From the IMG/VR virus record IMGVR_UViG_3300027902_000155, positions 1 through 64,000 of that record: a stretch of DNA of 64,000 bases; one strand, written 5' to 3'. The position numbers and the translations under genes are program-made. The number at the start of each line of letters is the position of its first letter. The stretch's first letter is position 1. Of the stretch, positions 33,925 through 34,412 are shown in pieces. This stretch comes from a virus. The notes under the pieces were generated by a model that searched no databases, was not told where the DNA came from, and saw nothing but the letters and a program-made list of their open reading frames with translations.

Positions 33925-34193
33925 GAAGTGCCGGAACTTCAGCTGCATTGTGTAGCTGACAGCACCTCGATAGAGGAAGCTATGACTAGTACTAATCGCT
34001 CGTCGCAAAACGAGCAAGTTCGCAACCTGACTAACAGGAAGCCGTACCGTTCGAAAGAACTCAAGGCGCTTGCGAGACGAACAGCACGAAAGTGCGCAGA
34101 CGGCGCCTGGAGGTCCAGCGCGCCAGTTCTTTACCACGGGAGGACAACGCAATGACAAGTAACTAGGGCGATCATGCCCCGGAGTACTAGTCA
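33925..34193 (+). ncRNA. candidate novel structured RNA
   Basis: perfect 11-bp closing stem 33983-33993/34183-34193 enclosing several hairpins, two with GAAA tetraloops; three more hairpins at 33925-33976. Confidence 0.55.
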
Positions 34194-34412
34194 ATGCCAG
34201 TCCTTGCTAAGAGCCTTACTAAGAAGGCTAAGAAGAGCAAGAAGCAGCGTAAGGTCGGACGCAACGCTGTCTTCTGCAATATCTACCGCATCACCCACCG
34301 CCGCGAGAGAAACAAGCTGATCCGCCTCGCAAAGCACCTGAAGCGCCATCCCCACGACGGGTGCGCCATCAGGGCAGCCGAGAACGCTAAGAACATCATG
34401 GGAATACATTGA
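34194..34412 (+). CDS. small highly basic protein (possible RNA-binding)
   Basis: GGAG RBS; K/R-rich; LAKHLKRHPHD motif. Confidence 0.65.
   Translation: MPVLAKSLTKKAKKSKKQRKVGRNAVFCNIYRITHRRERNKLIRLAKHLKRHPHDGCAIRAAENAKNIMGIH

Follow-up and report, generated by a model that had tools for sequence, protein, structure and literature searches.

The DNA analysed here (hereafter the window) is the first 64 kb of the 89.5-kb uncultured virus record IMGVR_UViG_3300027902_000155. At positions 33,925 to 34,412, adjoining and directly behind a transfer-messenger RNA (tmRNA) gene, lie an open reading frame (ORF) for a basic protein, which we call ORF-A; a leader of ~50 nucleotides (nt) made up of a very short ORF (mini-ORF) and a hairpin; and ORF-B, a gene for a lysine- and arginine-rich protein that runs into the gene for the late-transcription coactivator gp33. 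A sequence-only reading had interpreted the ~190 nt closed by an 11-bp stem across this stretch as a new structured RNA or RNA-protein module. We find instead that what the stem encloses is a protein-coding gene, kept by purifying selection, whose internal stems are lost in relatives, and that the only RNA-level conservation of the stretch is carried by the ORF-B leader, which is conserved and covarying. We therefore favour, as the likely account, that the stretch is part of a polycistronic mRNA behind the phage tmRNA gene, organized by serial translational coupling, and not a free-standing RNA.

With respect to ORF-A, protein-level conservation is extensive. Nine relatives were found in a collection of 5.8 billion proteins (E 1.3e-9 to 6.2e-6, 60-74 % identity), and a profile search returned 179 representative clusters at E<=1e-3, 40 of them at <=1e-10, nearly all 43-120 amino acids (aa) long; 16 residues are invariant across 11 sequences. 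For codon-level comparison we used alignment A4, which joins the window and eight further loci over a 35-codon core and leaves out L018 (the same as L019) and the 18 genome loci L045-L062. Mean pairwise identity in A4 is 0.72, 0.71 and 0.35 at codon positions 1, 2 and 3, respectively. The proportion of synonymous differences (pS, 0.66-1.05) far exceeds that of nonsynonymous ones (pN, 0.14-0.38), with third codon positions and synonymous sites saturated, and the ratio of nonsynonymous to synonymous rates (dN/dS) is 0.21 and 0.23 in the only two unsaturated pairs. ORF-A is thus a coding gene under purifying selection.

The internal stems, in turn, have no such conservation. The window's 20 internal pairs are 64.9 % paired on A4 compared with 62.4 % in shuffles, a value reached by 61 of 500 shuffles, and these pairs show no excess covariation (score 0.110 versus 0.088 in shuffles; 80/500). 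Across the nine loci the 105-nt core has z between +0.30 and -2.52 and folds differently in each, and the whole ORF-A of the syntenic relative L019 has a z of -0.18. Both GAAA 'tetraloops' sit in conserved codons (R-S-K and A-R-K-C). Purely coding conservation of the ORF starting at 33982, with dN/dS below 1 and the stems lost, is the outcome that the sequence-only reading had named beforehand as refuting its proposal. Because the conservation of ORF-A is coding and its internal stems are not kept, the reading as a new structured RNA fails.

The ORF-B leader follows a different pattern, one shared across the ORF-B family. Specifically, 20 of 23 leaders contain a mini-ORF of 2-4 codons that has its own AGGAG-like Shine-Dalgarno sequence and ends 22-41 nt before the ORF-B ATG; the remaining three carry ORFs of 9-13 codons. 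The window has the same layout, namely GGGAGGA, mini-ORF, GGGC-GAUCAU-GCCC, GGAG and the ORF-B ATG. Eighteen leaders were aligned (A3), omitting L003 and L040, in which the apical hairpin is absent, L024 and L041, whose leaders are different, and exact duplicates. In A3 the hairpin starts at or just after the mini-ORF stop codon and is 82.4 % paired versus 63.9 % in shuffles (0/500), with slid controls at <=56 %; two leaders misaligned by MAFFT (L032 and L035) are included in this figure and count against the hairpin. Five of its six pairs change on both sides, and RNAalifold returns the same hairpin with 4/5 pairs compensatory. The family loop is near AAUYCC and lies between a C-G closing pair (GC-AAUYCC-GC).

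Below this hairpin, a basal helix joins the mini-ORF start to the ORF-B start. When 20 leaders were folded one by one by minimum free energy (MFE), 19 had the mini-ORF AUG paired with bases located 0-17 nt before the ORF-B AUG, compared with 6.1 expected from shuffles; z ranges from -1.3 to -6.5, and the ORF-B Shine-Dalgarno sequence lies within the 3' strand. The local leader stem of the window has a probability of 0.93-0.96 in contexts of at least 306 nt, where the 11-bp stem reaches at most 0.03. A covariance model of the leader (R1) scores the window at 28 bits, the window being one of its training rows, and no family in Rfam 15 covers this element. Read-through of the mini-ORF stop into ORF-B was considered and rejected, as the distance from stop to ATG is a multiple of three in only a minority of leaders (27 and 36, for example, but not 40, 22, 29, 32, 26 or 28). 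Overall, the mini-ORF and hairpin leader probably controls ORF-B translation. The earlier suggestion of a translational switch that ribosomes open by translating an upstream ORF thereby survives in altered form, with this ~50-nt leader taking the place of the 190-nt domain, which is not retained as the device.

The 11-bp stem makes use of the 3' arm of this conserved leader. Its arms, TGACTAGTACT and AGTACTAGTCA, form a perfect inverted repeat with 189 nt between them; the 5' arm begins at the second base of the ATG at 33982, which is served by the Shine-Dalgarno sequence AGAGGAAG, and the 3' arm takes in part of GGAG (34181-34184) and ends one base before the ATG at 34194. These placements, and those of all the enclosed stems named in the sequence-only reading, were confirmed in the sequence and in the pair list of the 211-nt MFE structure. 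The folding energy of the 211 nt is also exceptional against shuffles (-80.3 kcal/mol, z -4.68, 0/200 shuffles as good), and a 320-nt stretch gives z -5.27 (0/100). The interior without the closing stem, leader or last hairpin (33994-34151) has a z of -2.18, with 7/200 shuffles as good. Perfect inverted repeats of at least 11 bp with loops of 3-250 nt number nine in the window versus 4.4 +/- 2.3 in 30 dinucleotide shuffles, and the 11-bp stem alone is therefore not beyond chance.

Formation of the stem depends strongly on where the RNA is taken to begin. Its mean pair probability is 0.95-0.99 only for transcripts starting at 33975-33983, falls to 0.36 for 33960-34215, and is <=0.03 in five longer contexts, where the 5' arm pairs with 33903-33918 and the 3' arm pairs locally. 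The 5' arm is part of a repeated start motif, in that GCTATGACTAGTA at the ORF-A start is a near-copy of GCAATGACAAGTA at the mini-ORF start. Allowing at most one mismatch, the shared motif GCWATGACWAGTA has four matches in the window compared with 0.16 expected: two at 33979 and 34149, one in reverse complement at the ORF-B start (34185), and one at 47851, away from these sites. We take the 11-bp stem to be, most likely, the family basal helix formed anew with a duplicated partner. It would then be an incidental product of duplicating or shuffling the cassette and could serve, at the most, as an auxiliary clamp. A miniature inverted-repeat element was rejected, as the structure is single-copy in the 89.5-kb record and the arm sequence occurs at only two sites in the window; among 98 loci the arm sequence was found only in L005 and L068, both of which are the present genome.

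A comparable arrangement precedes ORF-A. The long irregular hairpin over the ORF-A Shine-Dalgarno sequence and AUG (Table 1) is present in the 320-nt fold too, and in L010 the ORF-A AUG is likewise paired with upstream sequence. Three separate hairpins had been proposed at 33925-33976; their sequences are there, but they fold as parts of this one composite hairpin and not as units of their own. The judgement that the stretch belongs to no known RNA family holds, the Rfam scan matching nothing there except a sub-threshold site for Mu-gpT-DE (RF03012). Membership of that family was rejected, since the site at 33936-33984 reaches only 20.9 bits where the gathering score is 49 (E 0.056 in a search of 1.3 kb) and was not recovered when the whole window was scanned with Rfam. 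The site does resemble Mu-gpT-DE in being a hairpin just 5' of a Shine-Dalgarno sequence and AUG with similar loop and flank, and it lies in the tip of the long ORF-A leader hairpin.

From this organization we infer a chain of coupled starts that would run from the 3' flank of the tmRNA through a first mini-ORF, ORF-A, a second mini-ORF (entered at ATGA) and ORF-B to gp33 (entered at TTGA), with a helix hiding each next start until a ribosome passes. In the ORF-B leader, the mini-ORF start is predicted to pair with the bases just before the ORF-B AUG and so to bury the ORF-B ribosome-binding site. Ribosomes ending ORF-A could restart on the mini-ORF at the overlapping AUGA and would unzip the helix on their way to the mini-ORF stop, which would expose the ORF-B site for re-initiation or fresh initiation. 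The overlap of ORF-B with the gp33 start may provide the next coupling step, and upstream, the analogous hairpin and three-codon mini-ORF (33896-33907) would bury the ORF-A start in a similar manner. These genes presumably share a transcript with the tmRNA, which is compatible with the lack of plus-strand terminator-like sites in 33000-35500.

Several observations weigh against serial coupling by this leader. The z of the 211-nt fold lies beyond all of 126 background windows of the same length (positions 1 to ~53,000, 30 shuffles each; mean z -0.31, sd 1.12, minimum -3.58), a comparison that favours the structured-RNA finding since stem boundaries played no part in the choice of the background windows. 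The two 11-nt arms complement each other perfectly and fall exactly on two translation starts, whereas the proximal partner of the 3' arm has a mismatch and a bulge; a perfect distal and imperfect proximal partner would also fit selection for the long-range pairing. Within the leaders, the stem includes the AUG of the mini-ORF, and a ribosome initiating there would have to outcompete the helix first. The apical loop of the window, GAUCAU, departs from the family consensus AAUYCC, and its R1 score is among the lowest. Close relatives among the leaders (L011/L030, L029/L031 and L003/L040) mean that the count of 19/20 and the shuffle tests overstate independence, and all of the folds are equilibrium predictions.

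Table 1. Features at and around the tmRNA-ORF-A-ORF-B stretch (positions in the window).
Feature	Position	Strand	Evidence and remarks
Two-piece (permuted) alphaproteobacterial-type tmRNA	33593-33880	+	Rfam RF01849 alpha_tmRNA 96.6 bits (gathering score 50); RF04321 74.1 bits (gathering threshold 47)
GGAG (33886-33889) and 3-codon mini-ORF ATGTACGACTAA (33896-33907)	33886-33907	+	Read from sequence; precedes the ORF-A leader hairpin and extends into its 5' arm
Long irregular hairpin over ORF-A Shine-Dalgarno sequence and AUG	33903-33990	+	Fold of 33884-33996: -33.5 kcal/mol, z -2.74, 3/200 shuffles as good
ORF-A, 57-aa conserved basic protein, bulk of the supposed RNA	33982-34155	+	9 relatives; 179 clusters; codon-position pattern
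5' arm of 11-bp complementarity	33983-33993	+	Within a near-copy of the mini-ORF start, GCTATGACTAGTA (33979-33991)
GGGAGGA (34138-34144), 7 nt, 4-codon mini-ORF ATGACAAGTAACTAG (34152-34166)	34138-34166	+	Sequence; ATG overlaps ORF-A stop as ATGA
Conserved ORF-B-family leader: mini-ORF, apical hairpin, basal helix over ORF-B ribosome-binding site	34148-34196	+	Local fold z -2.87 to -3.60
Apical hairpin GGGC-GAUCAU-GCCC	34166-34179	+	Directly after/overlapping mini-ORF stop; pair probability 0.98-0.99
3' arm, common to two competing helices	34183-34193	+	Local partner, mini-ORF; long-range partner, ORF-A start; spans part of ORF-B GGAG and spacer
ORF-B, 72-aa K/R-rich protein, phage-only family, weakly DUF7022-like	34194-34412	+	31 relatives
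gp33 late-transcription coactivator	34409-34633	+	Pfam PF16805 Trans_coact 50.8 bits; TTG start overlaps ORF-B stop (TTGA); ORF list
PTH2-like peptidyl-tRNA hydrolase	35695-36153		25.8 bits (cut-off 23); after the weak-gp59 ORF

Beyond the window, the ORF-A family extends into bacterial genomes. Eighteen loci were found in prokaryote genomes, 17 of which are labelled Alphaproteobacteria or orders or families within that class. Contigs L047, L048, L053, L055 and L059, from alphaproteobacterial metagenome-assembled genomes, encode a longer form with a GEWxWD...PVR tail. In several of these genomes the longer form lies in a common chromosomal neighbourhood, so the ORF-A family is not only viral. 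Fused forms are represented by one 181-aa protein, which has no domains. Pfam holds no family for ORF-A, and an assignment as an ArfA-like factor was rejected on this ground. Paralogy with the 45-aa ORF at 31350-31487, which has no Pfam match at E<=1, was likewise rejected (hhalign probability 0.14 %, no Pfam family for either).

ORF-B, by comparison with DUF7022 (PF22887), scores 19.5 bits, below the cut-off of 27, over profile positions 17-50 of 166; precomputed data assign DUF7022 to three of its 31 relatives and to 29-35 % of members in the nearest Atlas clusters, and a full-text literature search for DUF7022 found no paper. The relatives share 13 invariant residues and invariant basic blocks. 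The Atlas clusters are 93-100 % viral, ORF-B was not found in 185,579 prokaryote genomes, and tblastn of ORF-B and its relative P0023 against INPHARED found nothing. Within the fetched flanks, 18 of 23 ORF-B loci scanned have tRNA genes on the same strand. One such phage tRNA array (L003), which also holds an ORF-B homologue, contains a bacterial class A RNase P RNA at 808-1095 (148.7 bits, gathering score 100).

Ribosomal protein uS15 has an autoregulatory mRNA leader, and the sequence-only reading had noted a loose likeness of the 72-aa protein to uS15. ORF-B is small, helical and basic, carries a short H-x(6)-D stretch that lines up with HFKxHxKD of S15, and has a structured leader over its own ribosome-binding site; it differs in having no significant sequence relationship. 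hhalign of ORF-B (A1) against five alphaproteobacterial S15 sequences gave a probability of 0.23 % over 19 columns around H-x(6)-D, the PDB profile comparison gave E 0.46-0.9, and ORF-B had no Ribosomal_S15 match at E<=1, DUF7022 being its sole Pfam match. The Pfam S15 model (PF00312) has no match in the genome at E<=0.001, compared with matches in 14/14 control genomes. A low-confidence Atlas model of ORF-B (predicted local distance difference test, pLDDT, 0.60) reaches a TM of 0.55-0.57 to S15 clusters, a structural resemblance that is only a lead for so short a protein. Kinship with uS15 was accordingly rejected, the family-model and profile tests having failed.

In terms of genomic setting, the identifications of the tmRNA and gp33 in the sequence-only reading were both borne out by family models (Table 1); ARAGORN missed the tmRNA at 33593-33880. 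A promoter region at 33596-33630 (TTGACT, 17 nt, TATAAATA) is absent from the consensus-scan list and fits both a sigma-70-type promoter and the T4 late-promoter consensus. A 77-aa ORF at 33374-33607 ends inside this region and matches only positions 1-54 of the 102-position DUF6915 model; its 3' part may have been truncated or replaced by the tmRNA block. Around the stretch also lie a weak match to gp59 (16.2 bits, cut-off 25), the PTH2-like hydrolase gene, which is 1.3 kb downstream, and gp32 at 36443-37408, which is <50 % identical to every phage of the cultured collection. The hydrolase, tmRNA and several mini-ORFs make this a translation-related neighbourhood. DNA of 33500-34700 has no similarity to INPHARED phages, gp33 as a search anchor found no related viral loci, and a 393-aa upstream gene used as anchor led to one distant locus, L006, which was left out of the analysis.

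The most informative relative for gene order is L019 (2071-2635), a second T4-like contig in which gp33, gp59 and gp32 were confirmed. Here a permuted tmRNA is followed directly by an ORF-A homologue, so the pairing of tmRNA and ORF-A recurs. The contig has no ORF-B; its ORF-A runs into gp33 at an overlapping GTGA, and gp59 and gp32 follow farther along. The mini-ORF, hairpin and ORF-B, all missing from L019 at exactly the junction of ORF-A and gp33, therefore behave as a single cassette that one lineage has and the other lacks.

This clean difference lends some weight to a possibility that we rate as real although clearly in the minority, namely that modular shuffling left the complementarity and the repeated start motif as mere scars. 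The ORF-B cassette, or else ORF-A, would in that case have entered through recombination between short repeated modules (promoter, stem-loop or start), and the long-range pairing would have no function. The repetition of the start motif at 33979 and 34149, inverted at 34185, suits such a history, as does a second promoter, hairpin and Shine-Dalgarno module at 31483-31534. The PeSL cassettes of T4-type phages are described as short GC-rich stem-loops beside sigma-70-like promoters that recur in T4-like genomes and are associated with small-ORF insertions and deletions; the stem-loops are described there as terminators, and the cassettes are reported to mediate modular shuffling (PMC2839356). 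Shuffling alone leaves unexplained why the distal copy is a perfect complement; moreover, a basal helix is conserved across the family, which shows selection on the pairing itself between the start region and the bases before the AUG.

The likeness to PeSL cassettes is clearest away from the ORF-B leader. At 31459-31534 the window contains a promoter-like TTGACT...TATGAT, the hairpin GGGCAATACCGCCC (31501-31514), GGAG and an ATG at 31532, and a sigma-70-like promoter adjacent to a stem-loop is thus visible by eye; a near-identical promoter and start module lies at 31305-31352. The site at 31483-31534 scores 24.7 bits with the ORF-B leader model, and both it and many of the 26 viral matches discussed below share the promoter and stem-loop layout (GGGC...GCCC type). 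The hairpin consensus is not enriched in the window as a whole (six matches versus 5.6 expected at <=3 mismatches), and only 31501-31514, with one mismatch, stands out. The ORF-B leader hairpin differs from a PeSL cassette in its position behind a mini-ORF stop and in the conservation of its loop, and no promoter-like site was found near 34100-34190, the nearest being at 34524 and 34630.

Some ribosomal and phage proteins bind their own leader to regulate translation, and the apical hairpin could be such an operator, to which ORF-B would bind so as to repress or tune its own translation. This role would be compatible with coupling, yet we hold it to be doubtful. A covarying stem with a nearly fixed loop and closing pair is the usual signature of a protein-recognized hairpin, this hairpin accompanies ORF-B in the 18 aligned leaders, and the invariant basic blocks of the protein would suit RNA binding; on the other hand, two family leaders lack the hairpin, and its distribution elsewhere is not tied to ORF-B. 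Exact copies of the 16-mer hairpin TAGGGCAATYCCGCCC were found in 26 viral stretches (L070-L095), compared with three for the reversed-order control; many have a promoter-like sequence a few bases upstream and are followed by the Shine-Dalgarno sequence and ATG of an unrelated gene. TAGGGCAATYCCGCCC is thus a recurrent phage 5' stem-loop. Neither ORF-A nor ORF-B was found in 226 kb fetched around the 26 sites, and the hairpin, standing before unrelated genes without ORF-B nearby, is therefore not specific to ORF-B.

These copies could be accommodated by a bolder proposal, which we offer as distinctly speculative and improbable as it stands. ORF-B may be a hairpin-binding regulator with an arginine-rich helix that recognizes GC-AAUYCC-GC in the leader of its own gene as well as at the beginning of other phage transcripts, such as at 31501-31514 and in the promoter-proximal copies of other phages. 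Together with the mini-ORFs, it would then tie genes of tRNA and tmRNA clusters, here gp33, to the translational state of the infected cell.

The switch of the sequence-only reading in its original form would make the 11-bp stem a working device peculiar to this phage: with the ORF-A start clamped to the ribosome-binding site of ORF-B, production of ORF-B would be limited to times when ribosomes are initiating on ORF-A. We regard this as unlikely. The perfection and exact placement of the complementarity, set against the imperfect proximal partner, speak for it, and the high pair probability of RNAs beginning at 33975-33983 could be realized by processing behind the tmRNA. With natural upstream sequence, however, the 5' arm is taken by the 33903-33918 strand, and perfect repeats of this length are not rare in the window. 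In L010, where ORF-A is directly upstream of ORF-B, there is no long-range pairing, and in L024 the order of the two genes is reversed; moreover, the stem would also block the ORF-A AUG that is meant to open it. Finally, a functional ~190-nt structured RNA, non-coding or dual-function and working with the 72-aa protein, is close to refuted in spite of the strong z, the multibranch fold with two GAAA tetraloops and the lack of an Rfam family to account for it, given the coding pattern of conservation, the stems not kept, the modest z of the interior alone, the conserved codons at both GAAA loops and an L019 ORF-A that has neither notable folding nor a neighbouring ORF-B.

Returning to the preferred reading of serial coupling, its consequences are of several kinds. 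For annotation, a false lead is removed, in that a strongly folding stretch behind a phage tmRNA is a small protein gene, easily missed at 57 aa. Two unannotated families emerge: ORF-A, found in phages and alphaproteobacterial genomes and twice directly behind a phage tmRNA, and ORF-B, found only in phages and situated in tRNA gene arrays. The mini-ORF and covarying hairpin form a new leader motif absent from Rfam 15 and offer a compact, testable case in which an upstream ORF would control a ribosome-binding site. Should the coupling chain be real, phage translation-repair genes (the tmRNA and the PTH2-like hydrolase) would be linked to production of the late-transcription coactivator.

Translational coupling through helices that mask ribosome-binding sites is familiar from the coat/replicase and lysis genes of RNA phages, from ribosomal-protein operons and from erm-type leader peptides. 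The present leader resembles these systems in having an upstream frame with its own Shine-Dalgarno sequence, in the predicted burial of the downstream ribosome-binding site in a helix with the translated upstream strand, and in its overlapping stop and start codons (ATGA, TTGA). It differs in that the upstream frame is no longer than 2-4 codons and ends directly against a separate apical hairpin that is itself conserved, in that no sensing of a drug or amino acid is evident, and in being known from sequence alone. A second point of comparison is provided by regulatory minigenes, such as the bar minigenes of phage lambda. A minigene is also reported for the axe-txe operon (PMC8708949). Like these minigenes, the mini-ORFs described here consist of 2-4 codons with a good Shine-Dalgarno sequence and stand before a gene whose translation they could influence; the difference is that here the mini-ORF belongs to a conserved helix.

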